A stretch of 63,976 nucleotides of DNA, filler included, from Hausera hauseri (Eukaryota), in NCBI GenBank assembly GCA_046269625.1. It is 12 parts of 12 records of this genome, joined end to end, with 100 filler letters (N's around TTAATTAATTAA, not from the genome) between each part and the next. Parts side by side here need not be neighbours in the genome. Positions count along the whole stretch, not along the records: positions 32,104 to 36,394 come from JBJURY010653330.1; 11 more parts are not named here. One strand, given 5' to 3'. A program made the translations under genes and the position numbers. Each line of letters begins with the position of its first letter. Position 1 is the first letter of the stretch. Shown piece after piece: positions 20,701 to 53,007 of the stretch. The notes below the pieces were generated by a model that was not told the origin of the DNA, did not search any database, and saw only the letters and a list, made by a program, of their open reading frames with translations.

Positions 20701-21329
20701 TTAGAACTTGGTAGGCATCCATATGCTGAAAACAGCATTGGTATTCAACAAGCCCATATATGTTGGTATGGCAATATTGGATCTATCAAAGACCCGAATG
20801 TACAGATTCCATTACAATATAATAGTCCCCCAGTTCAAGTCCATGCAACTAATGTATAAAGGATACTGATAGTTTCATCTATGAGATCCATACTGAGGAT
20901 ATTTATGAGGACTTTGCCCAATTGGCTCAACACATAGATACCTTGGACTATCCAAAGGATTATCCCAACTATTAAATTGCCAACAAAAATGTCCTTGGGA
21001 AATTCAAAGACAAGGTAAATTGAGCAATCATCTCGCGATTTGTAGCGCTCAGATCTAAAATGTATGCCCTAGATGTATGTGGCCAGATCAAAAAAAGGGC
21101 CAAGGGCGTTCAAAGGGCTACCTCATTCAAGAAGATCAGTTTTCAGGACTATGTGACAGTTCTGCAGGATAAGACTCACATCATAGCTGAAATGAAAAGG
21201 ATACCATCTAGGGATCATAACATATAAACAGTAACTCGCCATAAGAAAAGCCTAGATTGGATGGATGACAAGAGGCAGATCCTCAGCGACGGAATCAATA
21301 CACTACCTCATGGACATGTGGCATTGTAA
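17775..21329 (+). pseudogene. pPolB copy 2, near full length, many stops and frameshifts
   Basis: [75 protein letters not shown]; stop 21327-21329; AATAAA ~30 nt downstream. Confidence 0.92.
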
Positions 21330-21543
21330 ATATTGTTATTCTTTGCTATTCTTTGTTTAATAAATGTTATATAGAAAGGTCGTGTTGTCTTCTTGATCAA
21401 ATAATATGGTATATAGGATAAGGCCAAGTAAAACTAAGTAACTACTATATAGGCTAAGACCAAGTAAGATCAATAAATTTGAAATTTGAATAAAAGTCAA
21501 TACAATGCGACATTTACTTGCATTAGTTTTTCATTATTTCTAA

Positions 21544-21744
21544 ATGTTGAAAACTTGTCCGATATGTTGGCAGCAGATGTTAGACAAAACCATGAGAATG
21601 GCAACATGCAACACACATACCTTGTGTATAGGATGTCTACAGAAATGGTCGTGCACCAAAATGTCGTGTCCTCTATGTACAAAAAAGTGCGAGTATGCGG
21701 TAGTCCAGGATGCTGCAGACCAGATCCTGTATGTAAATAGGTAG
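21544..21744 (+). CDS. Small RING-finger (C3HC4-like) protein in the pPolB element
   Basis: CPIC-x13-C-x2-H-x2-CIGC-x10-CPLC; frame stays open past the TAG to ~21830 with an acidic tail, then AATAAA. Confidence 0.75.
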   Translation: MLKTCPICWQQMLDKTMRMATCNTHTLCIGCLQKWSCTKMSCPLCTKKCEYAVVQDAADQILYVNR

Positions 21745-23167
21745 GGCTACTGATAAACCCCATACATGATTTCTTACCAGATACAGAACCTTACATTGAC
21801 AGTGATAGTGACTATATAGTTATTATGTGAATGTTATTTAATACATGTTTTTTTATTATATGCTTTATATCTTACAAATAAAAACCAACTAGTTTTCATA
21901 AAACATTTACTTCGTAACAACATAACTTTGACATAACACTAAACATTTTTTAAAAGCGCAGTATGAACCATGTTCACGAAAAATACAGGTAATATTCTTT
22001 GGTATAGCTTACAATTTACCACATTCGTACGTACATATTCGCAGTTCCGGAAATGCGCTATTAAACAACTTCTTTCTTCCATCAACATGATTTATGACAT
22101 AGAACATAGATTCATTTATATCACATATATTTCAAATATCTCGCATAATGCAATCTATGCAGAACTGGGTATTATATTCACCACACGTCAGTTTATGATG
22201 ATGTCGGGTCAGGTAAGAATTGGTTGCTTGAGCCTTGCTCGTGCAACAATGCAGTGTAAGCCTAAAAATATAGCATAAATCACATGTACTATACTAAATT
22301 CACTTACGCAAATANNNNNNNNNNNNNNNNNNNNNNNNNNNNNNNNNNNNNNNNNNNNTTAATTAATTAANNNNNNNNNNNNNNNNNNNNNNNNNNNNNN
22401 NNNNNNNNNNNNNNATAATAACGGTTTTTCGATAAAACCTATAAAGTTGATTTTAGCACACAAACGAGTGGAAATCGAAAAATGTAAAAGCGTACGCACA
22501 CAGAAACTAACATGTGCTGTATCCCATTATGACATCAGATATTCGAAAACTCGAATACAAATCGAACTTTTGGAACAATTGATTTTCTTTATGAATAAAA
22601 GCAAAAATCGAAAAATCTAAAAGCGTAGACGGATAGAAACCCATATATGGAGAATCCGAATATGATGTCAGACATTCGAAAAGAGGCTTAAATAAAAAGG
22701 CCGATTTTTCTATCGAATTTGAATATTCGAATAATACCATCGGATTTCCTATGTCCGAAAACCTCTGTAGACCAAAAATTGGGTGTGCAAAGTATACACA
22801 AGTGTATGGAAATGAATAAAATATTGAAAAATAGGATAGTATTCGGTAAAGCATGCATTATTGGAACAATCTGATCACGCCATTCGATTGAATGAAAACC
22901 TATTTGGTGCCGACATGCATTTAATTTATTTGATGCATTAAAACAAAGTGCTCTAGAATGTTCGAAAAAATCCATAAATAATGCAGTATGCATTGATATG
23001 GCCATATGTTTCATTATTTCCAAAATCACTTCCACGAATGGCGAGAATTTTATTTGTGCTCCTCAAATAATTGGTTGATTTTAAATGTGCAATGTATACA
23101 AACAGTGCTGGACTCAAATCTACGGCCCGAAAATTGCCACAATATTATGTAGAAATACTTCACCCGT

Positions 23168-26100
23168 CTATACAACAGGGCTGAGTATTATATATGCCCA
23201 ACATGTGAGGTAGTGTGCCAGACCAAATATGAAGACCTTTACAATGCCCATAAACAACACCTGATTCCCTTCACCAAGTCGAAAAAACCAAGTACCAATA
23301 TGACAATAACTACTTTCATGCCGAACCAAAATCAGAGATGCAATTCGTACGCGTATCGCATATGTGCAATCTACAACCCTCAGAACTGTCATAATGCCAA
23401 GAGAAGCTATTATGAATATAAATTCAATAGGATCCCTGATTGGATCGCTAATAACAAAGCATGTGTCAATGTACATAATATCGATAACATGTGTTTCATA
23501 TATGCCTCTCTATCAAAACTCGTAACAGATCAAAATCATGCTTCACGAGTTTGGCTATATAAGGATGCGCAAGACAACTATGACATCCAATGTATCCAGT
23601 TCCCTCCATCCATAGATGAAGTTAAAAAATTTGGAAAAGTCAACATGTCCATCAATATCTTGTGGTTGGAAGAAGATGATAAATTCTATCCCCTGCAGAT
23701 ATGCGATAATGAATTGGAAGATCATATGGATCTGCTCCTACTAGGCGATGGAGAAAAGAAACATTATGTTTGGATCAAAGACTTTGAGCGGCTAGACAGA
23801 TCACAAATTACGAAACATCATTGACAAATAGAAATATGTAAACGATGCTTGTCCCATTTCAGCTGCAAGTTAGCTGTGGAGAAGCTGAAGGAGCACAAGA
23901 TCTACTGCAGCAACAGTTATTGTACCAGGCGAGAATTTCCCAAGGAAGATTACATTGAATTTAAGGAGTTCGAGAAGAAGATCAAGGTCCCAATAATTAT
24001 CTGTTGCGACTTTGAAGCGATCCTGTGTCCAGTTCAGAGTTGCAGTTCTAATACCCAACATAGCAGCACAACGGTATACCAATATTATGAGCTCTCATCA
24101 TATTGCATGTATACCAAAGGACTGGACAGTGAATCATATCTATTCAGGAGTCCAGGCGCAGCAGCACATTTCATGAAACGACTTGAAGATATGGCTCATA
24201 GGCTTGGCGATATGCAGCAGCAGCATAAGGATACAATGAGCATATCGAAGAAGCAAGAAGAAAAATGGTGCAAGGCAACAGCATGTTACTTGTGCTCCAA
24301 ACCATTCACTAAGGAGAATCATAAAGTTAGGGATCATTGTCATTTTACAGGACATTATCGGGGCGCGGCATGCAACAATTGCAATCTGTGTTGCAAAACA
24401 TGTACATATGTGCCTGTAGTGTTCCATAATCTCAGTGGCTATGATTCCCACGTCATTGTTCGGGAAGTGGGTAGCATTGAAGGAAACAGTAAGGTGATCC
24501 CTAATTGTGAGGAGAAGTACATCACCTTTACAAAGCATGTTGGAAAAATCAGGCTTCACTTCGTAGACACTTTCCGTTTCATGTCGTCTTTACTTAAGGA
24601 GACGAAGCGGTTCTTTCCCACCGCATTTGACCTCGTCAAGTGGAAAGGCGTATTTTCCTAGGACTACATAACCTCGTAGAAAACACTGGATCAGACGTCA
24701 TTGCTGGTCCAGAAGGACTTTAATAATATCATCTCTGATTGCGATATTAGTGATGCTGAATACCAGCATGCTCAGAACGTCTGAGATGCATTCCAATGCA
24801 GAACATTAGGGAAATACAGAGATACATACCTCAAGACGGACGTGCTGCTGTTAACGGATGTATTTGAGAGTTTCAGGTATGCTACAATGAAGAGCCATGC
24901 GTTGGATTCGGCTCATTTCTTTACAGCTCTGGAGATGAGTTGGGCAGCTATGCTGCACTATACAGGTATTAGGCTGTAGATTATAAAGGATTACGACATG
25001 ATCCTCATTATTGAGAGAGGCATTAGAGACTAAATATGCCAGGCCATTCACCGGTGTAGCAAGGCCAACAACAAGTCTATGGCCCAGAATGATCCATCCA
25101 AAGAATCCTCATATGTATCATGTTAGTTTCTGTGTGTACGCTTTTACATTTATCGATTTCCACGTGCTTGTGTGCTAAAATCAACTTTATAGGTTTTATC
25201 GGAAAACCGTTATTATTGATTAAAGCACACTTGCACATGTGCGATACATCTGAAAAGTGCTACATTGATGTATTAAGGCATGGGAAATTGACTGGTGCTC
25301 TCAGATTTCTCAAAAAAATTATGGGTGTCAAGATAATCAATACTATTCGTTAAAAGTCGATATTTATTCGAGTTGTGCACCGAATTTCAGTAATCTGAGA
25401 TGGGAGACCCGGGTTACAATATGGCACTTTCTATCTGTTCCCGCTTAAACATTTGTCAAATTTTGACTCCTTGGGACCAAAAAAAACTATCGGAAGTCTG
25501 CACCAATTGCACTTTGGATCGATATTATTCAAAATCCACTTTATCAACTTAAATTCGAATTGCACATTCACATAGTGCATTGTATTTTCAATATATTGCA
25601 CCAGGTGCCATGTACTAATCATCAATATTGGCAATATGGAAAACCGATATTATTGATTTTTGCATACTTGCACATGTGCTGCGCACCTGCATAGTGCAGC
25701 AGTTGATGTGCACTAATGTATACTATCGATTAGTACTTTGTCCCGATCGATTCGACCGATTACGTAATGTGCAGCTATCGATTTGTGAAATGTGCAAAAG
25801 TGTGCTTAGCGCCCTATTGCCATATGATAAGTGCAAGTGGGTCGAGCATTTTGAAAACACCCTTATACTGGATCTGGGTCCTAGTGGACATACGCGATAC
25901 ATACTGCAGGTGGACATGGAATATCAGGCTTCTATACACACAAGGCATCAACAGATGCCTTTCCTCCCTGAGATCAAGCCTCCACCGCATGGAAAGCATT
26001 GAAAGCTGCTCTGACATCTGGATAGTAGGGAAAGGTATGCAGTCAACTAAATAAATCTCTTGCAAGCTGTTAGACATGGACTCCGCATTACTAAGATCCA

Positions 26101-26963
26101 CAGAGTCCTGCAGTTCAGCCAGTCAATGTGGCTGCGGCCCTACATAGGCCTCAATACAAAGCTGCGGACAAATGCCAAGAACGATTATGAGAAGGACCAG
26201 TTCAAGCTTTACAACAACGTTTTTGGCAAGACCATGGAGAATATTCGCAACAGGATCAAAATTGAACTGGCCTTTAAATGGAAGTGGGCAAAGAAGCTCA
26301 TTGCTAAGTCCAACTTCCACAGCAGCACCATATATGCTGAGAACTTGGTCAGCACCCATATTCTGAAAACATGGCTTTAGTTCAACAATCCCATATATGT
26401 TGGTATGGCAATATGGACCTGTCAAAGACCTCGATCTACAATTTCCACTATGACATTATGATCCCCAAATTCAAGTCCATACAGCTGATGTATATAGATA
26501 CTGATAATTTCATCTATCACATCCATACTGAGGACATTTATGAGGACTTTTCTAAGTTGGCACAGCATATGGATACGTCTGACTATCCAAAGGAGCATCC
26601 CAAATATTCAATTACCAACAAGAAAGTCCTTGGGAAATTCAAAGACGAAGTGAATGGGACAATCATCTCGAGATTTGTAGCTCTTAGGTCCAAAATGTAT
26701 GCAATTGATGTATGTGGTCAGATCAAAAAGAGAGCTAAGGACGTTCAAAGGACTACCTTAGTCAAGAAGATCACTTTTGCGGATTACGTAAGAGTTCTGC
26801 ATGAACAGACTCACATCATGTCAGAGATGCGAAGGATCCAGTCTAGGACAGTAACATTGAGACAGTAACATTACGGAAGAAGAGCCTAGATTGGATGGAC
26901 GACAAAAGGCTGATCCTGGGTTATTGAATAAACACACTACCTCACAGGCATGTGGAATTGTAA
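23168..26963 (+). pseudogene. pPolB copy 3, with an N-terminal in-frame deletion and an insertion replacing motif A
   Basis: CYLC...KVRDHCHFTGHYRGAACNNCNL (EndoVII/HNH-like), ICCDFEA, KLYNNVFGKT, YIDTDN, LRSKMY; stop 26961-26963. Confidence 0.92.
25121..25810 (-). repeat. Inverted copy of the element's own 5' flank inserted in pPolB copy 3
   Basis: 25121-25216 is the near reverse complement of 22415-22512; ~25500-25810 is the reverse complement of the 16540-16830 unit. Confidence 0.8.
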
Positions 26964-27961: not shown

Positions 27962-30900
27962 TGATGTTCCATTGTCCTTAGGAAAGTCTGTAGATATTCT
28001 AAAAACAAATCTTCCTCTCTTCATTATTTCATTGAGTGTGGGGAATTTAAATAATGAATTTACTCCTTTTCTGAGTGTAGTGACTTCGAATAGAGCAACT
28101 GTTTTCAGTCTTCGTAATGGATAATAATAAGGCAACTGAATGTGGGCTAAATAAGGATACCCTGACATTAATTGAACGCACTCAACGTGTGTGCTAGTAA
28201 TCAAAAAACAGGCGTCATTTGTATTTTCCAATGTGACAATAAAGTCAGGATCTGGCGAACTGAATATTACGCGATCGGATCTTACTTGTACATAAATGTC
28301 CAATGGTCTAAAGGAAATAAACTAAATGCGTTCTGGGGCTTGCCTTATTCCTGCTATTAAGTACGGAATTTGATTATTAACCGAATAATGAAAACTGCTT
28401 AACCAAAAGGTATTTCGACAAGATGATTGCAATTGCAGCGTAAGAAGTATCTGCCGATTATCCTGTTTCGTGCATGATATTGAAGGTCGGGGCTTGTGAC
28501 CTCTACATTATAAAGTTCGTCAGTATATTGTTTCGCGGCGCATGAAAGAGAATAACTGACTCTACTGATTCGTGGTGCTTTTACTAAAACTCCCTTGTCA
28601 TTAAATATCTTTGCTCCAATTCGTTTATTATCTTCAACTGAAGGTGTACACGGTATCATTGGTGCTTTTCCTTCTATTCCAGTTACCGTACGTTGCCATA
28701 TACCATTTACAAGACGAAACATGGCGAATATTAATGAATATTCTTGGTTAGGTCGTGTATATATGCAAGTCGATTGATTATGTTCTCGGAAATAGTAAAC
28801 ATTATTTTGTTCAAAGGTTGTATCAGCATATCGTGTGGTTATTATCATTATTCTACCTTGTGGAATCTTCCTATCCCATTCAATTTGTAGGCATGGCTTT
28901 TTATAATCGGGTTGGCCTATAAACACTCTTTCTTCTAAGAATGATCTCTCAATTTTGGTTAACTCTTTCTGTTCGGGTGAATTGTCCATTAGAGATAACA
29001 TAACTGTTTTTGGTTTTAACGGTATCATTATTTTGAATGTTCGATCTTCATAGAGGGGTGAATTTTTATCCTTTGACATATGAATCTGCACCGAATAAAC
29101 AGTTCCATGCACAACTTTACAACAATTTTCCCCATATGAGGACGTAGTCGTACATAGCATTCTTTCTTCTCTATACAATGTTAACGTTCCCCAATTTTCG
29201 TTTATTGTTTTATTACTATTTATCCCAATTCGTGGATTGAGGAATCTCAGGGATAAGCAATTTCTTGTGTGATTATATTGAATGTACAGATCTCCTGGAG
29301 TAATACCTTGCATATCCCATGGTTCTATTTTTGGAATTCTCTTCAAATATTTCATGAAATCCGAAAATGTATTCGATGATAATTGAGTAAATACATTTGT
29401 TGTTTTCATTGAGCTTACAGTTGGCTGTGTAAATGAATCTGGTATGCAACAGACCAATATACCCATTGGTAATAACATTCTGTGAGGTTTTGAATCATGT
29501 TTAATCCGTGACAGTTGGGTTTGGACAGGTCTTTTAGTTTGTCGGTGGCTTTTAACGTATAGTAATACTACCCATATTAATACAAAAATGAGAATGACAA
29601 TGGGTGCAACAATTATCAGTAACAGATATCCATCATCCTGTTTTGTTGTCATAATGAATGTTTGGTTCTTCACTAATATCTTATTTTCGTCTGGTATTGC
29701 TTGCCGTTCTATATGGACAACGAGTCGTTTACCGGAAGTAGTTATATGACATAATGCTATTGTTTTTCGTTGGTGTATTATCCGTACGATGTAAAGACAT
29801 TGGGGTTTGAGACTGTAACAACTAATAGATGTATCCTTAAATAGTGAGCATTTGACTGTATCATCATCAAATGATATCATGTAATTGTTATTAGGGAAGT
29901 TAAATTTGGCATTTCTGTCATTTACTTGATAGGAAATATTCAAAGGAGTAAATCGAACCATCTGAATATGTTCAGGAAATTGTAGACCGTCGTAAGATAC
30001 ATGTAATGGCGAATTGAGAGTATTGAAATAAATTGTACTGATCCAAAACATATTGGGACATGGAGATAGTAATTGTAAGGTTAATAGTATTTGTCCGTCA
30101 TTACCTGGTACACAGATTCCTGAGGGTTCCACACTGGAATATTCTATATTATAATCCTCATCATTTGTTAACTTTGCTGTGCATGTTATAATGTTAGTGA
30201 CATTTTCTACTCTGGGGGTAATTCTCATTATTTCGTTGGAATTATCTACATCTGCATTTATTGGTCGATCATATTCAGGTGTTAGGCGACATTCATCATT
30301 ATTTTCTTTAATGGGTTCGTCTACTTTTATTCCTGTTCTAATTAGTTTGATAGTTGTTATTTCCGTAGGTATCGTAACGAAAATAGTTCGCTGGAAGGTG
30401 ATATAATGACCAAATCCATTTGTTCCCATGGTGATCTGATATAATTGAAAAGTAAGAGAATAAGTGTATCCTTGAGTAACCAAACAACATTTATTATCCT
30501 TTAGTTCCTAATGCACAACGCAAATAGGTCTATTTTCTTCAAACATTGTTATTGCTTCCCTTTCTTGTCCATTCAACCCGCTTACATAGGTTATCATTAA
30601 GCATTTTCTCTTGGAATTATAGTAAATTGAAAAAACTTTAAACACAAATCGACGATTGTTATTCAAATCCAAACTTGCATTTTCTAATAATTTCGAATAG
30701 TCTTGGTATACGGTATACAACTCCTGCTTTTGGTCAAAATTTGAGATCAGGGTTTGATTCAAATGAGGTGTAGCAGTTATTCGTGCCAAAACATTGGTCA
30801 TGCATAGTGTTAATACACATGAAAATAAAGTCATTCTTCCAAACTGCGGTTGTATACTCTGATATTGTTGGCTTATTGAATCACTTTCGACATCTTGTTG

Positions 30901-32003
30901 ATTATCCAGTTCACAAATATATTTGTTCGCGATGGGTTCCGTACTTACTGTAGAATTCATCTCCTGACTATTTTCGACGAACTGAGCATCTACCGCAAGG
31001 TTTGAGTTATTCAATTCAATGGGACTTACGTCGATGATATCGTCTTCTTCTTCTTCTATTACTGGTTTTAGGCTAAATTTATCCTCTATGGTAGGTTTTG
31101 GGAGGAGTTCAAGCAATTTGTCGATATTCTCTTCCATTCTATTCCAAGCTTTTTTATCTCTGGTAGGTCCTCTGAATTTCTTTTTTTTCTTAAATAATGC
31201 TTTATATTAATCGTATGCATCGACATTTCTATCAAGTACCACTGGTAGGGCAATTTGGTCGACAATGCTGCTCTTTGCGGTATTTTAGCTAAATATTTTA
31301 TTAAATATGCCTCTTCTCCAGGTAATAAATCCACTTGGGTTAGTCCTAAATAAGCCATCACCCTATTAATCCATCTGGTGTCATAAACTACTTTACTATC
31401 TATCCCGTATTTTTGAGCAAGCAAGTCTATTCTCTCATCGTGTAATTGTACTGAACGATAGTAAATTTCCAGCGTGCTGGCTTGTGTTAAATTAATTATT
31501 TCTTTATCGGTTATTCTTATTCCCTTAGGTTGATCCTTGTTTCTGTTGAAACTATAGAAAAGAATCTTTATCATGTATTGTCGAACTTCTTCTGTATCCA
31601 AATCAGGTGCCAGTATAAAGTTATTGATATAGAAATAATCTACAATTCGCTGTAATATACTCTGTTGGTGGTATTCATTATCACGATAAAAGGAGGTGAC
31701 ATATTGGCTTTTAATCCATGCTACAACACTATGGGATATATTAAGGTGGTCTGCCCCTAATTCCCATAACACTTGGTATACCCACCTATCCATTTCTGGA
31801 GTTGGTTCAGATAGGGCCTCTAGACTCTTGTATAAAAGTCTAGTACAAGTAAGTCTACTGTGAGTTATCTTGTTTACTGGTGTCAAGGTATCTAATAATT
31901 TAATCTTACAACATCTTAGGTTTGGTGTATTAGGATTTTCTTCAGCACTGATTCCTCTGTTAACCAAGATATCTGAGTAATTATCGAAACATCTTCTCAT
32001 CAT
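27962..32003 (-). pseudogene. Intronless virus-like polyprotein (>1300 codons): helical N-terminal region, then two signal-peptide-led ectodomain units with FnIII-like motifs separated by a TM helix
   Basis: ORFs 31086..32003, 30508..31137, 28399..30483 and 27962..28303 join through a frameshift near the T8 run 31181-31188, an in-frame stop at 30508, a frameshift near 28450 and a stop near 28325; TM YLLLIIVAPIVILIFVLIWVVLLYV; clear internal duplication. Confidence 0.7.
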
Positions 32004-32103
32004 NNNNNNNNNNNNNNNNNNNNNNNNNNNNNNNNNNNNNNNNNNNNTTAATTAATTAANNNNNNNNNNNNNNNNNNNNNNNNNNNNNNNNNNNNNNNNN
32101 NNN

Positions 32104-33265
32104 CGGAAAACGTTATTCAAATGAAACGCATACGAATGCTAGGTCAAGAGAAGAGGTAATAGAACAATCCACATCAACGATATTAATATCAGATGCACAC
32201 GGGTTGAAATTTATTAGAAAAGATATGTTATCACGTTGCGATGTAGTTATATATGCCACTAACTACGAAGCATTTTTTGTAGCAGAAAAAGAAATCGATA
32301 TGAAAACGTATGATTTAAAAACACAGGATGTGAGGATCGAAGACTACCTCAAAAACCGAGACGACTATTTCTATTACAAAGGTCAGACCGGAATAGCGGA
32401 ATTATATTACAAAATGATAACAAATGACTGCAGATTAGATACTGAATGCATGCGAACCAAACTAGCTTTAATTTACGCTAACTCAGAATTAGCATCACCA
32501 ATTATACTAATTAAAGTAAGCGTTTTCGGACGGGTTACCGGAGAAGTACTATTAACCTACAAATGCGAGAAAAGAGATGTGCCAATCAACGTAGAAGAGA
32601 AAAGATGCATGCAAAAATTACCGGTCATCTATGAGAATATGCCGAGATTACAAGGCCACTCACTCGCGTATTATTGGCAAACTCTACCGAACCGACGATA
32701 CTGAAGGAATGTTAAACGAGTCTAAGTGAACCAATGTTTCGACGTAGCAGTACAGACTGGATAAGCTTACCGAATGGAGGCTCTGCTGCAGCCCCTAGTA
32801 AGCTAACGGGAACTAATTTAATGAAAGAATTATCTGAGGAAAAATTCGAGGACACGGCTAACAAAGGAATTGATAGACCAAAAGATATAGAAGCTTTTAG
32901 ACAATTTCTAGAGTTTCCACGACAGAGAACATATAAACGGAATAAAGCTATGTCAATGGTCATGTACGATACTCGTTTTCAAGCAAAATTGGAGTCATTA
33001 CTTGGCGCTAATCACTACCAGAGGGTAACATCAGAAATACTATATAAAATCTGGAGAGGATTTTTAATTTTTGGACAAGTTGCATCTGGATTTTTAGCCA
33101 TCTACTTTTTAGTCTAACTAATTAAAGCAGTAATTTAAGCCATTATAAACGGGTATGAAACATTCACATTGACAGGATTCTCTTGTAAAATTTTAACCGC
33201 ATTCATCACACAATTTGAAAAGATGCTTAAAGCGTACGAAGAAAAAACCGATGGAAAAATGATGT
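32104..33265 (+). pseudogene. env: Chuvirus/gB-type (class III) envelope glycoprotein, C-terminal half
   Basis: RCDVVIYATNY, DYFYY...NDCRL, FGRVTGEVLLTYKC, RCMQKLPV, FLEFP, then membrane region KIWRGFLIFGQVASGFLAIYFLV; pattern recalled from chuvirus-like glycoproteins. Confidence 0.8.
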
Positions 33266-33929
33266 AGAACGCCATGTCGGATATTATAATCGTAAACGAC
33301 GAGGCAGACCCTCGATTCTTAATAAATGCAAAAATAGAAAGACAATAGTATGGAAAGACGACTCAGGTGATGACGAGCCTAAGGGAGGAGAAGTAAATTC
33401 CAGAATGAGGATACACAAAATATACTCAGTAATTAACACATCATTGCCTATCATGCCACCAACAGCGCCAATATATGAAGACTGTGACCATAAATCGATC
33501 ACATACTGTCGATCAGAAATCTATCAAAAGCCTATTAATTATGAGAATCCTTATGAGAAGACAAAACAATATGGAGTACTTCGGAAAATGAATGTTATCA
33601 ACCAAGGACCAACAGAAAACAACCACGGAATATTATATTCAGAAAGGATACCGCGCCACATAGAGCCGAAATCAACAATCTGGGAGAACCCAAAAATGTG
33701 TCCTATCTCGGGTTCACTACCCCAGGAACCTCTCATTGACAGTCGTGTTACTGAAATAACAAATAACAATTTATATCCGAATGGAGAATTAAGACAATTA
33801 AGGCAAGATATCATTTCATCGCCAGGAATAACAATAAATGGACATAGAGTCTACTATGAAGCAGTCAAAGATAGCCTAAAATTGCTACAGGACAGTAGCA
33901 AAAGGAAGACCTTTCGCCAAAATACACAC

Positions 33930-36394
33930 TGAAGATTGGGAAGTATATGCATTAATCGACACCGAATCAGAAAAATCATTTATAAAATATGAATCTATAC
34001 CAACCACATTGCGAGACCAGTTATGTCCGCCCGCCCCATCGCACCCAGGTAGCATAGGAGCATTTGGACAAGTACCGAGGCCAAAATTGAAATGGACTCC
34101 TACTGTGTATATGATGGGCCAAGCACTTCAACATGAATTCGCGATAATGGATCAGTTAACAGACAATGTAGTACTAGGTTGCGACATACTGAAGCAAATA
34201 CCAGGGATGGCAATTAATGTGCATAGTGGAAAATTAATTGAGCTCGAGCCAATAAAAGGGACAAAGGCAATAAAGGAAAGGAAATCAGGCGAAGTATGGA
34301 TTCCGGTGGATGAGGACATTCCGCCTAGAACCGAAATGATAATATTTGCACAAATTTGACAGGACGAGGACCTACCAGTATATTTCGAGCCTCAAGAGAA
34401 TATTGATCCAAATCTTATGTTTAACAATATTCTATGTAGAGTAATGACGGGACAAATACCTATCAGACTAATGAATAATGCACCAATTCCCGTAAGATTA
34501 CACGCTAGAACTACTTTAGGTCACACTTACAGAATATCGGCAGTAACAATAGAGGAGAAACCATACAAGTGTGCCGAATTTCCACCTCACGTGGAGCCCA
34601 AATTCTCTCCCGAAGCGTATTGCAAATTCTACGAATTATTGTGTAAATTCCGTTCGATAATAACGCAAAACGAAGAAGACATAGGTAGAGCAGGGGCTCT
34701 AAGATTAACGATTCCATTGAGGAAAAAACCCGGCTCAAATGACGAAATCGATCTAGAAGAACAAAAAATGTTCAAATGGTACGCGCCTCCTCACTCATTG
34801 AGACCGAAGATAACTAAAGAGGTAGAACGAATGTTAAAGGCCGACATAATTCGACCAAGTTATCGATCATGATATTCACCTATACTTATGGTTAAGAAGA
34901 AGGGAACTACAAAACATAGATTTTGTATAGATTATCGGGCACTAAAAACGATAATAATGAAAGACGCATTTCCCTTGCCATCGGTAAATAAAGCTTTAGA
35001 CAGACTATCAGGAGCAAAATGGTTTACCACTCTCGACTTACAATCGGGATACTGGCAGGTAGAAATTGAAGAAGAAGATTGATATAAAACAGCGTTTAAA
35101 ACACATGATGGCGTATACGAATTTAATGTTATGCCTTTTGGCATCACCACCAGCCCAGCTATTTTTACTAGAATGATGAATAAGATGCTCATGGGACTTG
35201 ATCATGCATTTGCATACTTAGACGACGTGATGATAGCATCAAGAACGGAGGAGGAACACTTAAAGGACATTGAAGATACACTCATGCGGCTAGAACAAGT
35301 AGTTCTAAAACTAAAATCAAAGACATGTAAATGGGCATAGAACGCAGTATCGTACCTCGGACACCTAGTTGGAGAAGGAGGATCAAAACCGCATAAATAA
35401 TTTTTAAATAAAGTATCCGATTGTATGCAACCGCAGAATCAAAAAGAGTTAAGACACTGGTTAAGCCCATATGGATATTATGTCACTTATGTACCAGACA
35501 ATTCAAAAATGAACGCACCACTATATCGCCTACTCAAAAAAGGAACGAAGTGGAGATGGACAGAAGTGCAACAAAACCAATCAACGAAATGAAGAAAGTT
35601 TTGACAACGAACCAGTTTTAAAATACCCGGATTTTAACCTACTATTCATCATTAAAACAGATGCAAGTAAAGAAGGCATAGGATGAGAATTAACTCAGAA
35701 ACGAGAAGAAGAAGAATTAGAACATCCCATAGCCTATGGAGGACGTTCATTAAAGAAAGCAGAAAAGAATTATTTAGTTAACGAATTGGAAACGTTAGCT
35801 GTAAAGGAAGCACTACGACACTTTAATGTCTACGTCTATGGACAAAAGATTATCATAGTTACTGATCACAAAGCAGTTACAACATTGAAAGGACAAGCTA
35901 ATAATCCAACATGCAGATTAAACCGTTGGATTGAAGAAATCTCACGATATAACATTAAATTTCAATACAAACCGGGTAATAAACACGTTGACGCCGACGC
36001 ACTGTCAAGATGAAAGACAAAAACGAGTGCAATCACCACAATAAAAAAGCCACAACTCGAACAGCTGATCGAACGACAAAAAACTCTAATATCGAATAAG
36101 ACAATTAGAATTACAGCGGAGCAAGCGAAAGATACGGTCATTCAGCAAATTATTGAATTCGTACAAAACGACAAAATGCTAAAAGGACGGCAACTGAAAA
36201 AGCATTTACAGAAACACGGACGTAAATATCGCGCATCAAACCTAGATAACATCCTGTATTACAAACGGAACGGAAGAAGATTAGTAGTCATTCCAAAAGG
36301 ATTACGCACCGAAGTACTCATGGCTGAACATGACTCGTATTTAGCTGGACACATGTTGTGGAAGAAGCCATTGGAAAGAATATTAAATAAATAC
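33930..36394 (+). pseudogene. pol: Ty3/Gypsy pol (protease-RT-RNase H-integrase N-terminus), decayed
   Basis: ALIDTESEKSF (protease, ~33950), VVLGCDIL, RFCIDYRAL, LDLQSGYWQV, YLDD, TDASK, TDHK, DADALSR, integrase Zn-finger start EHDSYLAGH. Confidence 0.92.
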
Positions 36395-38029
36395 NNNNNN
36401 NNNNNNNNNNNNNNNNNNNNNNNNNNNNNNNNNNNNNNTTAATTAATTAANNNNNNNNNNNNNNNNNNNNNNNNNNNNNNNNNNNNNNNNNNNNTGATAA
36501 GGGAAAGAAGAAAGTGGGTAAGGGGGACTTGGTTTCATACTATCAATGAGAATAAAATCATCACACCTGGAATGCAACTTAGTAAACGATAGAATAATAA
36601 CAATTAGACTGAAGAGGAAAAAAAGAAACATCAAAATCGTGCATATATACGCACCTACATCAGCAGCAAATGGCAAAGACATCCAGGAATTTTACAGAAA
36701 ATTGCAAGTACCTGTACATGAAGCAAAGAAAGGCGTCATCACAATTATAATGGGAGATCGAAATGTAAAAATCGGCATCGAAAGAACAGAGACAGTGAAA
36801 AAAGCGCGAGGGACTTTTGGTATAGCACATAGAAACGAAAGAGGGGAAAGACTAATTGAATTCTTCCTAGAAAACAGCTTGTGCATCACAAACACACTCT
36901 TCAAACAACACTCCAGAAGACTGTTTACATGGACCTCACCAGATAGCAACACCAGGAATGAAATAGACTACATCCTAATGCAGCAGAGATGGAGGTCAAG
37001 TATAACAGCCACAAAGACATTACGAGGAGCAGAACATCGAAGCAACATCGAAGTCCAAAATAAATTCAAGTTCTAATGGCAATACAAGTTGACATGACAC
37101 CTGACGAGTTAGCCACGCACACATGAGAGATTCTCATCTCAACAGCTCAAAACATGTTACAAAGACAAACTCAGAAGAAACAGAGCTACATGACTAACAA
37201 AACACTGAAACTCATACAAGAAAGAAGAAGACCGAAGCGAGAAGGGGTGAAACGAAACAGCAGCAACTATAGACTCTGCACCTGAAAAAGTAGAAGAGAA
37301 ATAAGGAAAGACAAAATAAAAAACAGTATATAACAAATGCATGCAACAAAATAGAAGATCTTCAAAAACAAGGAAACGATGGAGACATGTTCAGATAAAT
37401 TAAAGCACTAACTAGAATTTTTAACCCACATCTACAAGTAATAGATGACAAACAAAGAACGACTCCAAAAGAAAACACAGACATTCAAGCAAGATGGAAA
37501 GAATACTGCTGGAAAGGTACAAAGACACTAAAAATAATACAGAGGTAGTAATAAAAGGTAATGATAAGGAACCAGAACGGATTTTAGATGAAGTGATTTT
37601 CGGCAATAAATAGTCAAAACAAAGGTAAATCACCATGTTGCGATTACATACCAGCTGAATTAATTCAAGCAGGAAGCGAAGCCAGGGCCCGAGTCTATCA
37701 CGCTTTGTATATAAAGTTTTGGAATAGTCCTGACTGGCCAATGTAAGAAAAAGATCAGTATGCATTCCCATACCAAAGAAAGGTAATCTAAAACTGCACA
37801 AATTATCGCACCATTGCAGTAATAAGTGATGCCAACAAAATCCTCCTACCCATCATCATGAAAAGAATGAAAAAGAAAATCGCGGAAGAAGTACAAGAAG
37901 TGCAAGCTGGGTTCTGACCAGGCAGGGGCACCAGGTACCACATCTTCAACATGAGAAACATCTTCGAGAAATGCAGAACGTGCAACGTAGACCTTCGCAC
38001 TTGTTTCATTGATTACAATAAGGCTTTTG

Positions 38030-38108
38030 ACTGAAAAAATCCCAAGTGCTTCCACCGTACCTCTAGCACTCGAGGCGGACGTCCTACCTCGAGACCACTG
38101 AGCCCCCT
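38030..38108 (-). mobile_element. Possible second SINE-family head fragment (related fragment near 10050-10110)
   Basis: Minus strand reads GGGGCTCAGTGGTCTCGAGGTAGGACGTCCGCCTCGAG; CTCGAGGCGGACGTC is shared with ~10086. Confidence 0.35.
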
Positions 38109-38830
38109 GAAAGGAGTAAGATAAAGATGTATACTCTGCCAATATCTGCTCAACATCTATGCCGAGAATATAATGTGAAATGTCAAAGAAGATAAAATTG
38201 TGCGAACTGTGATCCTTTCACATTTGGTGTTAACACCCTTCCATAACTCAGAAAACGCAGACGATACAGTCCCCTTTCAAAAAGCACTGGAGGTCTGAAA
38301 TAACTGATACTGGTGGATAAAAAACACACAAAGAACAGAACCTTCTCTTGAACACAAAGAGAACAAAACTAATGACAACTCACAAAACTAGTCGCAAACC
38401 CAAAATCCCCATAGACAAAGAAGAAATGGTGAATGTTTGAAATTATGAATATCTGGGTTTCACAATAGACAACATTGGAGTCTGATTAGGGGAAGTGAGA
38501 ATGATATTAACAATAGCAATGCAGAGATTAACTAGTATGAAGAACCTATGGCATGACACCAGCAACTCAGACAATTAAAATTTCTAAGAACATGAATTTT
38601 CTCTGTGGCGACCTATGGATGCGAATCATGGACTATCACACAAGCAATAAAGAAAAACAGATAAACGCATTCGAATTAAAGTGTTACAGAAAAGTCATAA
38701 GAATAGCATGGACTAAAGGAGAAAAACACAAAGCTATACTTCAAAAACTGAACATCGCGAACAACTGGCTTGTCAACAGTATCATGTGTCTCGAAAACAG
38801 AATTATTTTGGCCACGTTAAACGTCATGAT

Positions 38831-39101
38831 AGGAGCCGCGATGGCGTTGCGGTTAGTTCGTTCTTGCGCCGATCGTGTGGTCGTGGGTTCAATCCCAATT
38901 GCGGGTGTTTTTTTCAAAACAGATCCAAGGACCCACCAGCCTCAAAAATTGGCACCGGAGAAATTCTCTGCATAAGTAGAGGCGGCCTGGCGGTATGCTA
39001 GCAACATAATCCAATCATGTGCCGATGTCAAAGAAAATCTAGACACTAACTCTACATTTCCCTATATGCATTATGTGGCGTGTAATGGGCTTTACTTTTT
39101 G
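38831..39101 (+). mobile_element. tRNA-derived SINE with Nin-domain-like core, 13-bp TSD
   Basis: A box TGGCGTTGCGG, B box GGTTCAATCC; core CCACCAGCCTC...GGCACCGG...GGCGGCCTGGCGG...TGCCGATGTCAAAG...TGGCGTGTA; TSD TAAACGTC(A/T)TGAT at 38818-38830 and 39102-39114. Confidence 0.85.
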
Positions 39102-40699
39102 TAAACGTCTTGATGGCCTGGAGAAAATAGTTTTTGAAGGTTTTGTTCCTGGTGCAAGAGGCAAGGGAAGACCAAGAGACGCTGAACACAAGAGATCATG
39201 GAGACACTGAATATAAACTTGAGAGAGTCGGGCGAGCTGACAAGAGACAGAGAATCTTTCAGACGGGCTATGATGAGTACGACGTTCTGCAAAGGACATG
39301 CCACATATGTATAATTGCTTTGCAACCTGGTCTTTCTAGTAGATTCCAACCGCTGCCTGCGACTCTTTCCCTCAATATTTATAAAGAAGTTAAGTTTCAA
39401 GTATCTTCGTATCGCTAAAGAATGATTCTGTTTGTGTTACTTACATACATATATGAAAATGGACACGGGCCATGCGCCGTAGCATATCGTTCACCTCAGA
39501 ACATAATGGTATATGTCATAAGACAGATTAAGGAAAATCATTTCCATACAATTATTGAATGCCGCCAGAGAATGACGTGTAGTACTTTCATTTTTCTCAG
39601 CTACCAAGTTGTCATTATGGACGCAACCACCTATCTTGCCCCTTTTCTTTCTCGCGTTGTATCTTGGTAGCCATTTCGGGCTTTTATTTCTGTTTCTTAT
39701 TTCTTATCAACACTTTAACTATTCTAAACAAAATGTTTATTTCGGCATGACTGTTTTGTTTTTGCTTCAAAAGTTTCAGTGACTACCAAATTTTGTAGTT
39801 CTTTTTATCTCATCCCAAGAGCCAGAAAGTTAACTTCGCATTTTCTTGATCAGATTCCGATCTGTTGTAACTAACGTGTCAATACGATTAAGAATTTGTA
39901 ATACTTTTTTCATAGCTATCTTTCAGCAACTCCTATTGGTTTTAAGAAAATAAAATGTCTGTGTATTGACCTAATCTCAAGTGGAGCAGTATGGTTACCA
40001 CTGTAGCACTCTTTTCGTTGTTTACGTGTTAGGATCCTGGTGTTTCTAAAAACGTCTTTTTGCTTTGACTATTCCTGCTTTGATTTCAATTTAGTTCCTA
40101 ATAGCTGCTATCAAATTGAAACACGCGTGAACTTGTTCTGGTGGGCAGTATTGATAAGAGAAATATCCTTGACAGAAAACTGTATTACAATGTGTGAATC
40201 ATCAACGGAAACTAAAAACACCTCCATCAAATAGCTGAATACTTCCATATTAAGAATACAAGTGTTCATGAATAGGATAACTTTAAAAGCAACGTTTTGA
40301 GTACGCAAAAGAAAACAATAGTGAATACGAAACGTTTCATATCGGATAGACAACCGCAAGCCAATATGTTATTGTGTGACCGCCTTGCCCACAGTGATTT
40401 TCAGATTTTTAAAATTAAACATTGGCCTTTGATCGAGCCGGGCAATAACATAAACGAAACAATACAGATACGGATTCGGAAACTTACAAAATCAGAAATG
40501 ACACCAACGATGTTAATTGTTTGGTTTCATTCGTCTGATGGTTTAAATCGTCATCTAGAGATCTAAGGCTGTACGGATCATCAAAGCACAGTTTTGTAAC
40601 CAAATCTGGACAGAAAAAAAACTTTTCGCTGAAGTGTTTGTTACTACACTCTATTGTTTTCTTTCTATATTTTCACACTCTTCTATAATTTGTTATCTT

Positions 40700-41830
40700 T
40701 GTCTCTGGTGCGCTGGAAAGGGCGCCTTCATAACCAACACGGGAGAAAACTTCATATACTCAGGGAAAGAATAAAGTTTACAAGGAGGGATTGGTTTCAT
40801 ACTATCAAAGAGAGTAAAATCATCACACCTGGAATGCAACTTAGTAAACGATATAATAATAACAAGTAGATTGAAGAGAAAAAAAAGAAACATCACAATA
40901 ATGCAGATATACGCACCAACATCAGCAGGAAATGGCGAAGACATCGAGGAATTTTACAGCAAATTGGGAGTACCTATATACACTAGGCAAAGAAAGGCGT
41001 CATCACAATTATATTGGGAGATTGTAATGCAAAAATCGGCATAGAAATAACAGAGCTAGTAAAAAAAGTGCGAGGAACTTTCGGTATAGGACATAGAAAC
41101 GAAAGAAGCCAAAGACTAATGGAATAATTCTGCCTAGAAAACAACAAATACACCAAAATAGTACAGAAGCAGTAATGAAAGATGATGATAAAGAGCCAGA
41201 ACCGATTTTAGATGAAGTGATTTCGGCAATAAATAGTCTGAAAAAAAGGGAAATCACCAGGTTGCGATGATATACCAGCTGAATTATTTCAAGCAGGAAG
41301 ACAAGCCAGCGCCCGAGTCTATCACACACTGTGTATAAAGAACTGGAATAGTGCTGACTGCCCAATACATGGAAAAGATCAGTATATGTTCCCATACCAA
41401 AGTAATACAAGAAGTGCAAGCAGGTTTCTGATAAGGCAGGGGCACCAGGGACCATATCTTCAAAATGAGAAACATCTTTGAGAAGTGCAGAGAGTACAAC
41501 GTGGACCTTCATACTTGTTTCATTGATTACACCAAGGCTTATGGAACATCTTGAGAGGCTTGGGGTTTACAACACAAATAGTACACCTAATTGCACCACT
41601 GTATCAATAACAACAAGCAACTGTAAGAATATCGGGAGATACATCAGAATGGTTTGCGATACTAAAATGAGTAAGACAAGGATGTATACTCTCCCCATAT
41701 CTGCTCAACATCTATGACGAGAATATAATGAGAAATGCCAAAGAAGATGAAAATTGTGCAAACTATGATCCTTTCACAATTGGTGTTAACACCCTTCCAG
41801 AACTCAGATACACAGATGGTACAATCCCTT
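40700..41830 (+). mobile_element. Internally deleted copy of the same RTE-like LINE
   Basis: Collinear segments homologous to 36530-38270 (YAPTS, EPEPILDEVISAI, QAGF) with large deletions. Confidence 0.85.
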
Positions 41831-43034
41831 TTTTTTATTCTGTATATATCTTTAGATTGTGACAGCAGTGCTATATCATCTGCAAGTGTAGATTCTCTAA
41901 TCTCATAGTCAGTCCTCATATAATTCCTCTGTTTTCTTCTCCACGTGTAAAAGGCGACGGAATACATGTCTGCCTAACACCAGATTTGACCTCAAACCAT
42001 CTAATATATGAACCTTGGTATGAACACAACATTGGTTGTTAGAGTACGTATCTTTGAATATATTTATATCTTTTGTTGGAAATCCATATTCTATAAGGAT
42101 CTTTCACAGTGCTGGATGACGTACACTGTCAAATGCCTTTTCAAAATCTATGAAGTTAATATGTGCCGATGACTGCCATTCTGGCGATTGTTCAATTACT
42201 GTCTTCAATACAAAGATCTGATCTGTGCAAGACCTCTCTTTCCTAAATCCTGCTTGTCCTTCTCTCAGAGTTTTTTCAACACTGTTCTTTATCCCTGAGA
42301 GTAGTACCCTGCAGAATATTTTCTCTGCAACAGACATGAGATTGATTCCTTCGCCAGTAGTCACATCTTGAGAGATCTCATTTCTTCGGTATTTTTACAA
42401 TGACACATCCCTTTCCTTGCATCTGGCACGATTTCTTCTTCCCGCATTTTGTTAAACAAATTGACAAGGCATTTTGCACTTATCTGAGGCTAAAATTTGA
42501 GCATGTCTGCAGATCTATTCTTCCCCAGGCGCTCTGTTGTTCTTGTGTTGTATGATAGCTTCTTCTATTTCCGTATATGTAATAGGTGTTTCTTCATTTC
42601 TTGTTGTTGTCTTTGGCAATTAGTCTGTATTTCTATTAGTGGTTCTTTCCCGGTGAGTGTTGTGTTAAAATATTCTGCCCATCTGTCTAGCTGATCTTCA
42701 TCTTTGACAAGTTTCCTACCATTTAGATCTTTAATATTTGCATCAAAGTCAACACGAGCTGACGCTCGATGACTGTGGAGGAAAGACAAAACATGACACG
42801 ACAAGATCTTTAGTTACTGTTGAACTGTTAGCATTTCCTTGGGTTATTTCTCTGATTATTTTATACAAGGCTCCAGTGTTTCATTTGTCTGCGGCCTCTT
42901 GGGCTTGTTGGGTTGTAATAGTAACATGTTTTTGTAGTTTATCATTCCATTATTTTGTTTTTTTTTTCTTTTTGGTGCTTTAATGTGACCTTTAAATAAG
43001 TTTATGAGACAAATTTATTATAGTTGTTTTAATT
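41830..43034 (-). mobile_element. Second LINE family, RT fragment
   Basis: LREGQAGFRKERSCTDQIFVL...FIDFEKAFDSV in 42104..42364; RWAEYF in 42565..42804. Confidence 0.85.
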
Positions 43035-47154: not shown

Positions 47155-50100
47155 TCAGACCCTGTTCCTTCTGCCGAAAAATTAACCAAAACTAGATCTG
47201 GTCGTCGTCCTGACGACGTCACGCTAAATACATCTCCAAATCTCCCTTGCACGGATTTTTTTCTCGACAAAACGAATTCTAGCCGTACCTGGTTACAATT
47301 CTATTTGCAATGGCTTAAAGCCAATCATATCACATACTCCTTTTTGCAGGCGAGCAGCTTGCTGCTACTACTTCCAGCTAATATCAAGCAGCAAATCAAT
47401 AATGTGGCTGAAATACTAACCTCTTCAAATCCATATTATATGCTTTATGAATCAGTTCTGCACATTACCGACCCTTTTATTGACAGCATAATTCAGAAAT
47501 ACTTTAATGAATATGCCATCGGAAATCAAAACCATCGGATTTCCTTAAAACTGCAATATCCCAACTGAGTTCTTTAGGCGTCACTACTATAAACAATGTT
47601 AATTTTCTTCGTCGGTATTTTCTTTCATCCTTGCCAACCTCCATCAGAGCGCTGCTCACGGGATTAGACGACTCAACTGCCCTTCAAAAGCTCGCCTTAT
47701 TGGCAGACAAAAGTTTTGACATTTTTCCATCTAATAGTTCACAGCCAGTAGCTGCAGCAACCGCTCACACACCATCACGCACAGATAACACTTTATTTTC
47801 ACAACAACTGCATATTATGCAGAAGCAAGTCGAAACACTCCAACAGGCAATTTCTGCGATCACAGCCAAACTATGCGACTTATCCGTGCCTCGAAAAAAC
47901 AAAAACCATGTTTCGTGCAATCGTAGCTTTTCCAGACACTCTACTTGGTCCAAATCTCGAGATTGTAGAATAATTTGCTTCTATCACAATAAATTTGGTA
48001 GAGAAGCAAGAAAGTGTTTTAGGCTGTTGATTTTACGATGAACTTTATGTAGTAGACAACCAAATCTGCATCTATCACACAAAGTATCAATCAAAGGCTA
48101 GGTCGTGTGTGCCAGGATTCACATATTTTAAAAAGAATTCTAGTTTTTCTCCGTCTTCTTCGCCTCCTCGTATTTATCATTCGTCTGCTTTTTCCCAACA
48201 ATCCCCAAAAACCAGTAATGCCATCAGATGTCACGGCCAATTCTGGTATAGGCAATATCGCTCAAACTTCTGGCCGTTTCGACAGCACCTCTGCAGTCTT
48301 TCTGTTGAAAGCTGAAATGATATTTGGAGACACCTCGCACATAGACTTCCTTATCGATTCAGGAGCTGCCTTTTCACTTCTTCCTTTGTCTTTCGCTCCT
48401 ACATCTAACACAGTTTTCTCTCCTCCACTCTTCACTACCTGTGGTCAACCCTTGAACATTGTAGGCATCACTAAACTGTCTTCCTCATTCTCCAACCTTT
48501 CAGGAAAATTCTCCTGAAAATTTCACATAGCCAACATCAGATCGCCCATAATAGGCGCCGATTTCCTGGCTGCATACTATTTGTTAGTCGACTGAAAGCA
48601 TAGATGCCTTCGTAGAATCCCCGCTGCAAATTCTTACAAATGTTTACTAAACGAACAGTCTGACACTTTGTCTTCCTCTGTTCATTCAAATATCAATTTG
48701 ACATGCTGCTCATCGGCTGATAACAACACGCTTAATAATTCTTCAATATTTTCTATTTCATCAAGTAAGAACAAATCAATCTTTAAACAATCGATTGAAA
48801 CGAATATTATTAACAAAGTGTTCTGTGATTCTGTATCGATTACAGCCATTGACTCTTCCACTAATATGCCCTCATCATTCTTATCGCTGGAAACCAATCT
48901 TAAATCCTTCATCAAAACTTTTTGCTTCCGCACTCTTAAGAAGGACATCAATTTCAAGCCTCATTCTACAACTTATCACCACATAGTCAGCGAACACCAA
49001 AGACCTATTAGACAAAAGGTAAGGCCACTGTTACCTCGTAGACAAAAAGCCGTTAAATTAGATTTCAATGAACTCGAAAAGGCTGGCATTATTCGAAGAT
49101 CCAAATCACCATGGGCTTCGCCATTGCATGTAGTAACAAAGAAAAATGGAACTTACAGACCATGTGGTGACTATCGGCAGTTAAATAATCTTACAGTCAT
49201 GGATGCTTACCCGCTACCTCTAATAAATGACATCATGCACAGTCTTACCAACACTAACACGTACTCCACAATTGACTTGCATAAAGCATATCATCAAATT
49301 CCGGTTGCACCTGATGATATTCCAAAAACTGTTATTATTACTCCATTTGGCCTCTACGAATATATCTTTATGCCATTTGGTTTACGTAGTGCTTCTAAAA
49401 CTTTCAAACGACACATTGATACCGTACTTTCAGGCATAGACTTCGCTCATCCATATATTGTTGACATATTAGTTGCCTCTACGTCCGTCAAACAACATCA
49501 AGAACACCTTCGCATTATTTTTCACAGATTGCATCATAGCAATTTGCAAGTCAACTTCTCCAAGTGTCATTTCTTTCAAAATCGTGTTATTTTCCTAGGT
49601 CACGTCATTACTCCTAACGGCCACTCTCCACAACTGGACTGACTACATCAATTGAAGAACATAATTCTGCCGACGAATATCACGGACATGAGAAGTTTCT
49701 TAGACATACTCCACTTTATCCACAAATACGTACCACATTGCTCTGAGCTTACAGCACCTTTTGCACCTTTAACATCTGGAACAAAGAAGCAATTGATCCA
49801 CTGGACTCCTGATTTGGTAACCAAGTTTGATCACTGGCGTGAGGGTCTTAAAACCGTAGAAATACTGGCTTATCTGAAACCCAAGGCAGATCTTATTCTT
49901 ACAACCAATGCCTCAACCACAGCTATTGGCGTTGTACTACACCAGATTTCTAATGGTGTTGACTTGACATTAGAATTGTAATCTAGGAAACTTACACAAC
50001 CCGAGATCCGTTACTCCACATTTGACCGTGAGTTACTTGCCATAGTTCTGGCAGTAAAACATTTCAAACACTTACTTCTCTCTCGTCCATTCGTCATTCA

Positions 50101-50163
50101 AACTGACCATAAGCCTCTGCTGCACATCATGTCGTTAAAAGAGCCATCACCAAGGCAAGAGAG
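46935..50163 (+). mobile_element. CsRn1/Kabuki-type Gypsy retrotransposon, copy A (Ubl-Gag-PR-RT-RH), truncated by contig end
   Basis: CHCC-type Gag motifs CFYHNKFGREARKC and CIYHTKYQSKARSC; FLIDSGAAFS; RPCGDYRQLN, IDLHKAYHQI, YIVD (decayed YxDD); YSTFDRELLA, TDHKPL. Confidence 0.9.
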
Positions 50164-52293: not shown

Positions 52294-52436
52294 CGTTGCC
52301 GCGATGGTGTTGGTTTTGCTCGCATTACAACAATTTGAACGAAACGTAAATGAAAGATTCGGCAAACTGGGACAGAAAGATAAAAACCATGCACCCATAT
52401 CGCCGAATCATTATATACTTACCGTCATTGTTCATA

Positions 52437-52800: not shown

Positions 52801-52824
52801 AGATTTAGTTATTTGTAACCGTTG

Positions 52825-53007
52825 TCAGTGTGACGGTAATTTGCGTCTAGTTGCTGCTTTTGTTGTTCGAAGCACCGAATTGATTAATCGCTTCACTGTA
52901 GCGGCGCTTCTTTTTGATACACGTTTTTTGCCATCGGACACCCGCTTGCTAGTAGGTTTACGTTTAACAATTGTTTTTCGGAAATTCTTTATTTTTATCA
53001 TAATCAT
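52825..53007 (-). CDS. Small highly basic protein, possible DNA-condensing core protein
   Basis: 60 aa, K/R-rich, co-oriented directly downstream of the ATPase. Confidence 0.45.
   Translation of the reverse strand: MIMIKIKNFRKTIVKRKPTSKRVSDGKKRVSKRSAATVKRLINSVLRTTKAATRRKLPSH

Follow-up and report, generated by a model that had tools for sequence, protein, structure and literature searches.

A decayed Ty3/gypsy fragment in the genome of Hausera hauseri with a gB-like envelope upstream of pol, probably of the Burro/NERV kind

Ty3/gypsy elements in which env precedes pol have already been published, as the planarian Burro/GYPSM1 and as errantiviruses of nematodes, bryozoans and flatworms. Sacco et al. 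are said to have described in 2022 the nematode element NERV, with one continuous gag-env-pro-pol open reading frame (ORF) and a Nyamiviridae-like env, limited to chromadorean nematodes. Burro/GYPSM1 is a giant planarian Gypsy element encoding a single polyprotein, in which env sits in frame after gag and before protease (Arkhipova and Yushenova 2019, PMC6431247). Its Env matches mononegavirus fusion glycoproteins, an extra (dUTPase-like) domain lies between protease and reverse transcriptase (RT), accessory domains (Bcl-2, ubiquitin-like, BIR, ankyrin) are present, and decayed fragments with stops and frameshifts are known (PMC6431247). Errantiviruses with the order GAG-ENV-POL and an env of the herpes simplex virus (HSV)/glycoprotein B (gB) type occur in Nematoda, Bryozoa and Platyhelminthes and are not monophyletic in pol; the supplement rows examined give as many as 215 copies for a single planarian; the order ENV-GAG-POL was reported for two oribatid mites, and NERV is cited for its flipped env and pol (Chary and Hayashi 2026, PMC13524379). 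The BEL/Pao elements designated Anakin carry a chuvirus glycoprotein (PMC7642597, PMC10084718, PMC13524379). Here we describe a contig (32104..36394, plus strand) within a window of 63,976 nucleotides from Hausera hauseri (assembly GCA_046269625.1), for which an initial annotation had proposed a Gypsy element with a chuvirus/gB-type envelope upstream of pol. The surprise implied by that annotation is not warranted, since PMC6431247 and PMC13524379 already describe the layout.

The contig is very probably a dead fragment from the interior of a multicopy long terminal repeat (LTR) retroelement of the Ty3/gypsy type and the Burro/NERV kind, with a gB-like env between gag and pol. On one strand it contains, in this order, the second half of env, a membrane region, a linker, protease, RT, RNase H and the start of an integrase (Table 1), an order confirmed up to RNase H by Pfam and hydropathy. 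Integrase had also been claimed; the Integrase_H2C2 domain does begin, with only its first ~35 residues present. The window is composed of contigs of 4-7 kb separated by a fixed spacer (a 12-base linker flanked on either side by 44 N), and contigs on either side of a spacer are not genomic neighbours. The contig under study is one whole contig between two such spacers, starting in mid-env (approximately profile position 260 of the 653 of PF24664) and ending before the integrase core; gag and the LTRs are therefore outside the view. This copy is decayed, with 10 in-frame stops on the coding path and four frame changes (near 32650, 33240, 33880-33930 and 35590). No direct repeat of at least 20 nt was found within the contig, and the AT skew is uniform across 32001-36000 (+0.22 to +0.26).

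The chuvirus/gB-type env was borne out by profile and by structure. Pfam PF24664 (Monjiviricetes_fusion) matched in two pieces above the cut-off (32105-32701, E 2.3e-13, profile positions 264-406 of 653; 32716-33114, E 7.1e-10, profile positions 440-560). Identity to the env of the ten best matches was 30-37%, and the C-terminal part was collinear in tblastn with the related proteins P0001, P0002, P0006, P0111 and others. A hydropathy maximum (2.53) lies at 33079-33147, with an equivalent segment in the relatives. A model of the first env piece (mean predicted local distance difference test score 78.6) shows strands, a 48-residue central helix and more strands; herpesvirus gB chains fill its Foldseek list, and the three best of 48,161 chains in a wide fold search were gB (Z 5.4, 5.3 and 4.5). 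The full-length relative P0012, which matches the env piece at E 5e-20, resembles gB of HSV-1 by fold at E 1e-13. The class III (gB-like) assignment is sound at the family level. A sequence search of the PDB returned only two chance nucleoprotein rows (E 0.1-0.17).

The pol part shows the Ty3/gypsy order protease-RT-RNase H-integrase, the last represented by its start. Pfam RVP extends over 33880-34356 with an E-value of 7.6e-4, just under the cut-off, and the catalytic motif of the protease deviates from the family pattern. RVT_1 was found in two pieces (E 5.6e-9 and 8.4e-17), with up to 53% identity over RT. The 120 pol matches listed included Ty3-G, 17.6 and K02A2.6-like proteins, whose Pfam sets are those of Gypsy, placing RT and RNase H in the Gypsy type. 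The pol matches were dominated by fused gene models with multiple RTs and were used only as tree background. The spacer between protease and RT had no Pfam match at E-values up to 1, the dUTPase-like domain included.

Table 1. Features of the env-pol contig; positions are those of the window
Feature	Position	Strand	Evidence and remarks
gB/Monjiviricetes-type env ectodomain, middle part	32104..32640	+	PF24664, env matches, model; 5' end cut by contig edge
Env ectodomain, C-terminal part, other frame	32656..33048	+	PF24664; collinear tblastn; break near 32650, stop near 32713
Membrane region, predicted transmembrane helix ~33060-33147 and weaker amphipathic segment	33049..33216	+	Hydropathy; two stops inside
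Open linker, 233 codons, read as Env cytoplasmic tail leading into protease	33231..33932	+	PTAP 33459-33470; LYPx3L-type motif 33771-33791
Retropepsin-type protease, catalytic motif degenerate	33904..34203	+	Pfam RVP; collinear with P0006 and P0111 from 33904
Spacer domain, protease to RT	34240..34560	+	Aligns with relatives; position of the dUTPase-like domain of Burro
RT and connection, four stops	34780..35580	+	RVT_1; catalytic motif 35215-35226
RNase H, one stop	35612..36010	+	RT_RNaseH E 5.3e-24; after frame change near 35590
Integrase zinc-binding domain, start only	36290..36394	+	Integrase_H2C2 positions 1-34 of 59, E 4.1e-4; cut by contig end

An exhaustive search with env yielded 110 relatives among 1.84 billion representatives, of which 21 (the best and the longest) were scanned; a word-index search for longer proteins with the env piece had given none among 431 candidates. 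A protease was fused after env in 8 of the 10 best env matches, and env and protease were present in one protein in 11 of the 21 scanned relatives, five of these continuing to RT and RNase H. Cluster look-ups and a P0001 search added further relatives, which are selected for the env-pol layout. Gag markers were detected upstream of env in P0010, P0016 and P0017 by Pfam, and in P0001, P0004 and P0239 by a CCHC pattern. At locus L002 the one ORF of at least 150 amino acids spans 2,693 codons with weak matches to Ty3 capsid, CCHC, env, protease, RT, RNase H and integrase. The cluster of P0239 has 20 members, and the 15 listed are all 4,026-4,029 amino acids long. Between Gag and the ectodomain the relatives show a hydrophobic signal-like segment, and after the ectodomain one strong transmembrane segment. 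Accessory domains were found as well: Bcl-2 (P0012), ubiquitin (L001), ankyrin (P0111 and P0160) and three CCHC motifs (P0010). These relatives support the proposed invertebrate, retrovirus-like Gypsy lineage with the order (gag)-env-pol. They also show the single env-linker-pol ORF that had been suggested (L002 and, as far as the protease, the 11 env-protease proteins), which for the broken copy in the contig is inferred.

The polyproteins P0001, P0006, P0015, P0111, P0114, P0160 and P0238-P0240 measure 2,400-4,844 amino acids, several having 2-6 protease-like motifs, C2H2 fingers or ankyrin repeats. A second hydrophobic pair (signal-like, then anchor) follows integrase in many of them and may represent another membrane protein. 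The best-matching env-pol relative, P0001 (HBK71150.1), is on record as a hypothetical protein from a 9-kb contig of a Flavobacteriaceae metagenome-assembled genome, and most probably stems from animal DNA that was binned with bacteria. Locus L001:61-4266 has a gag-like frame of 999 amino acids with a CCHC motif and a ubiquitin-like match, followed by one in-frame stop before a gB-type env, which may be decay or a readthrough site. No LTR pair was found in L001 or L002. Locus scans with P0001 gave nothing in metagenome or genome contigs; those with alignment A2 gave nothing in viral contigs and two loci among 589 pattern matches in metagenomes.

The element belongs to a large, diverged family of copies. 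Sequencing run X1, in which depth is not copy number, contains 0.20 of the sampled words, and 14,082 of its contigs were placed at 80% or more on the env-pol stretch, mostly with identities of 80-95%; together they reach all 30 of 30 bins. One of them, with 57 differences over 33596-33962, crosses from the linker into the protease. Other X1 copies differ in length close to three of our four frame changes, consistent with decay private to our copy. No RNA data set was listed with such words.

In the env tree the copy grouped with all 15 env-then-protease proteins (Shimodaira-Hasegawa-like approximate likelihood ratio test 87). In the RT phylogeny, suggested as a check by the initial annotation, it lay with the env-pol proteins at a 97/99 split in the first tree (with long-branch warnings) and at an 89/96 split in the third, from which the other long branch, P0229, was left out. 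For these RT trees most Cordylochernes gene models were dropped, as were matches covering less than 170 (first tree) or 350 (second and third) query residues. The env and RT trees share one pattern, namely a main clade, a small clade of P0015, P0017 and L002, and our copy alone. In the second RT tree, which contained no named Burro reference, our RT fell outside a 100/100 clade with the ankyrin-bearing polyproteins. The pol matches P0160 and P0162, which begin just before RT, were inside the env-pol clade.

An alternative is a chance juxtaposition, either with a Gypsy element without env inserted beside a chuvirus-like glycoprotein endogenous viral element (EVE) or a foreign env, or by misassembly. 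Jingchuvirales glycoprotein EVEs frequently have fragmentary Gypsy copies as neighbours without having been captured (PMC10084718), no single X1 contig spans the whole stretch from env to integrase, and pol matches without env are listed. Against this, env and pol have collinear matches in one and the same set of polyproteins (~20-39% identity), indicating that the arrangement is not a nested insertion, and the env and RT trees agree in their three-way pattern. The gap between env and pol is an open 233-codon frame with the Tyr-Pro motif of the family (see below), the skew is uniform, there is no internal direct repeat, and a diverged contig crosses the linker to the protease. A chance juxtaposition is thus largely refuted and is highly improbable, and the nested insertions named at the outset as a possible refutation were not found.

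Several observations weigh against the Burro/NERV-like assignment. The copy is a long branch in every tree, and the second RT tree left it, at 42/59, beyond the two env-pol clades that had strong support. PF24664 is missing from all 120 pol matches listed, in a list swamped by fused gene models. The fold evidence for this env piece itself is weak in Foldseek (best E 0.09, none reaching 0.001) and middling in the wide search (rmsd, the root-mean-square deviation, 5.3 over 153 residues at Z 5.4). The relatives are not uniform either: L001 has its in-frame stop between the gag-like ORF and env, and P0012 and P0025 extend only a little past the membrane region. The linker has no sequence match to the fetched relatives; from membrane motif to protease it takes 295 codons, longer than most of the relatives (124-384), and the Tyr-Pro motif is absent from the tails of L002 and P0003. 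In addition, run X1 may be the source of the window itself, and no length difference among its copies was listed at the linker-protease junction.

The linker had been described as ~700 bp, proline-rich and without a Gag knuckle. It is open over 233 codons (chance ~4e-8 at its composition) and indeed lacks Gag features; it is only mildly proline-rich at 7.3%, where env, RT and RNase H have 2.5-3.8% and the protease 9.3%. As an open frame without assigned family it could represent a short, divergent gag in an ENV-GAG-POL element, an arrangement that exists in the two oribatid mites (PMC13524379). No CCHC motif, capsid, Pfam Gag or other Pfam family and no Atlas match was detected in it, the two Medioppia entries examined carry an F-type env (ENV_F) as opposed to the gB-type env found here, and gB-type relatives have Gag upstream of env. 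This order is extremely unlikely, and the linker was rejected as Gag.

We read the linker as the cytoplasmic tail of Env. The tails of the relatives, otherwise not alignable, share a Tyr-Pro dipeptide in 14 of 15 cases (14 relatives and our copy; 4.8 expected from shuffles), or in 14 of 16 with L002 counted. The pattern [LIMVH]YPx1-3[LI] was present in 10 of 15 (0.47 expected; 10 of 16 with L002) and, ahead of the protease, in none of 22 env-less Gypsy proteins. This pattern was written after inspection of 11 of these tails and the sequences are related, so the P-values are overstated; of three relatives fetched after it had been set, two matched fully and one had the Tyr-Pro. In relatives with several proteases, the hydrophobic-Tyr-Pro precedes the first one, beside Env, and precedes only one later copy. 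PTAP in our linker had a shuffle P of 0.0015, and PT/SAP was present in only 1 of 13 tails of relatives.

In retroviral Gag, LYPXnL binds ALIX and PT/SAP binds TSG101 (PMC10144533), and aromatic-Pro is a type 1 retroviral protease site (PMC3185560). The Tyr-Pro motif may, tentatively, be a late domain of the ALIX type or, with a lower probability, a protease cut site; some other function is about as likely as the first. Among 43 stand-alone gB-like proteins, 5 carry the [LIMVH]YPx1-3[LI] pattern within their last 130 residues, against 0.9 expected, and this tends to favour a signal in the Env tail over a cut site. The recurrent motif is possibly the only new point beyond the published layout. 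No statement of an Env-borne late domain or of Pol loading by a membrane tether was found in the accessible portions of PMC6431247 and PMC13524379 or in a literature search that returned only general retrovirology, most subscription papers being outside its scope.

By analogy with the relatives, a working element of this lineage would likely contain one long ORF, translated as a membrane-threaded polyprotein. The signal-like segment and single anchor of the relatives, together with standard membrane-protein topology, suggest that Gag would remain cytosolic, an internal signal sequence would direct the gB ectodomain into the lumen of the endoplasmic reticulum, and the single transmembrane helix would stop transfer. 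The cytosolic Env tail would then run on into protease, RT, RNase H and integrase. Cleavage by signal peptidase would separate Gag from Env, and the retropepsin would be held at the membrane until self-cleavage, then releasing Pol; such a tie between protease and membrane anchor had been suggested by the initial annotation. The hydrophobic-Tyr-Pro motif would either recruit ALIX and the endosomal sorting complex required for transport (ESCRT) for budding or mark a protease cut. For our copy, upstream gag, LTRs, topology and processing are all presumed in this scheme.

Alternatively, the same env-before-pol element might express Pol by a programmed frameshift or readthrough at 33880-33932, so that most of the product would be Gag-Env ending in a free tail and Pol would be joined to just part of it. 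Here linker and protease, in different frames, overlap by ~50 nt, and no length difference is listed at this junction among other copies. Such a shift would solve the 1:1:1 stoichiometry of Gag, Env and Pol, and L001 provides an in-frame stop at another junction. However, the 11 relatives with env and protease, P0238-P0240 and L002 all read through in frame, and the three other frame changes of our copy look like decay. We consider the programmed shift quite unlikely.

In its furthest form the single-polyprotein reading describes a third deep gag-env-pol Gypsy lineage of this kind, whose budding signal would have passed from Gag to the tail of a gB-type Env, with a group-wide LYPxnL-like ALIX motif and PTAP added here, Env both recruiting ESCRT and holding protease and Pol at the membrane. 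This extension is speculative and rather unlikely. The LYPxnL-like and PTAP motifs of our tail would form the same pair as in HIV-1 p6, and a Pol tethered by Env would be a flavivirus-like polyprotein strategy in a reverse-transcribing element. If the motif is a late domain, an Env-borne ESCRT signal for budding and the loading of Pol by its membrane tether would explain a particle made from a 1:1:1 Gag-Env-Pol polyprotein.

The window contains further elements. At 47511-50155 (plus strand) lies a second, unrelated Gypsy element without env (gag-like frame, protease, RT, RNase H), with an RT 34% identical to that described here. The separate contig 27962-32003 (minus strand) has three long frames (321, 232 and 702 amino acids) with signal-like and transmembrane segments and no significant Pfam match; Atlas gave fibronectin-III/cytokine-receptor-like proteins at 0.82-0.85, a lead only. 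This contig was rejected as a post-integrase tail of the env-pol element, having no match to the tails of the relatives. Polinton-like pieces at 12922-14730, 17990-26868 and 51664-53663 include an ATPase that matches Pox_A32 (E 1.4e-4), a frame resembling an integrase, and frames which we take to be protein-primed polymerase-like. Judging from their translations, 36522-38975 and 40633-41862 are presumably decayed RTE-type long interspersed nuclear element fragments, and 56304-57293 presumably a Tc1/mariner-like transposase frame.

Compared with the known systems, the element would work like Burro/NERV. Burro is approached in the nearest relatives, which carry Bcl-2, ubiquitin, ankyrin and triple CCHC, and possibly in the spacer between protease and RT, homologous in the relatives and without Pfam match. 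The one-ORF feature of Burro is found in the relatives, our copy having four frame changes. Differences from Burro are the single protease between env and RT, the longer Env tail with PTAP, and the long branches of RT and env outside the clade of accessory-rich relatives, in a comparison without a named Burro sequence. With NERV it shares a Metavirus-type RT. With the errantiviruses it shares a Ty3/gypsy pol, a gB-type env upstream of pol in one element and multiple copies, and env domain I-II of the relatives resembles Schmidtea entries by eye. PMC13524379 treats three ORFs, its main text, as accessible, mentioning no single-ORF polyprotein, late domain or Burro, and our copy is broken; a literature search for a single ORF in such elements gave only PMC6431247 as a further paper. 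Anakin has captured the same broad glycoprotein family into an LTR element, but the pol described here is of the Gypsy type, with no Pao peptidase family in its Pfam set. The mite order ENV-GAG-POL differs in its ENV_F and in the place of gag, our linker having no Gag feature. Troyka was dropped from the comparison, as no member encodes env in the accessible part of PMC12440569. The element is a new deep member of the env-before-pol, gB-type Gypsy elements, and our copy, one more deeply diverged and decayed case, supports the view that Gypsy elements with env before pol and gB-type fusogens are old and diverse.

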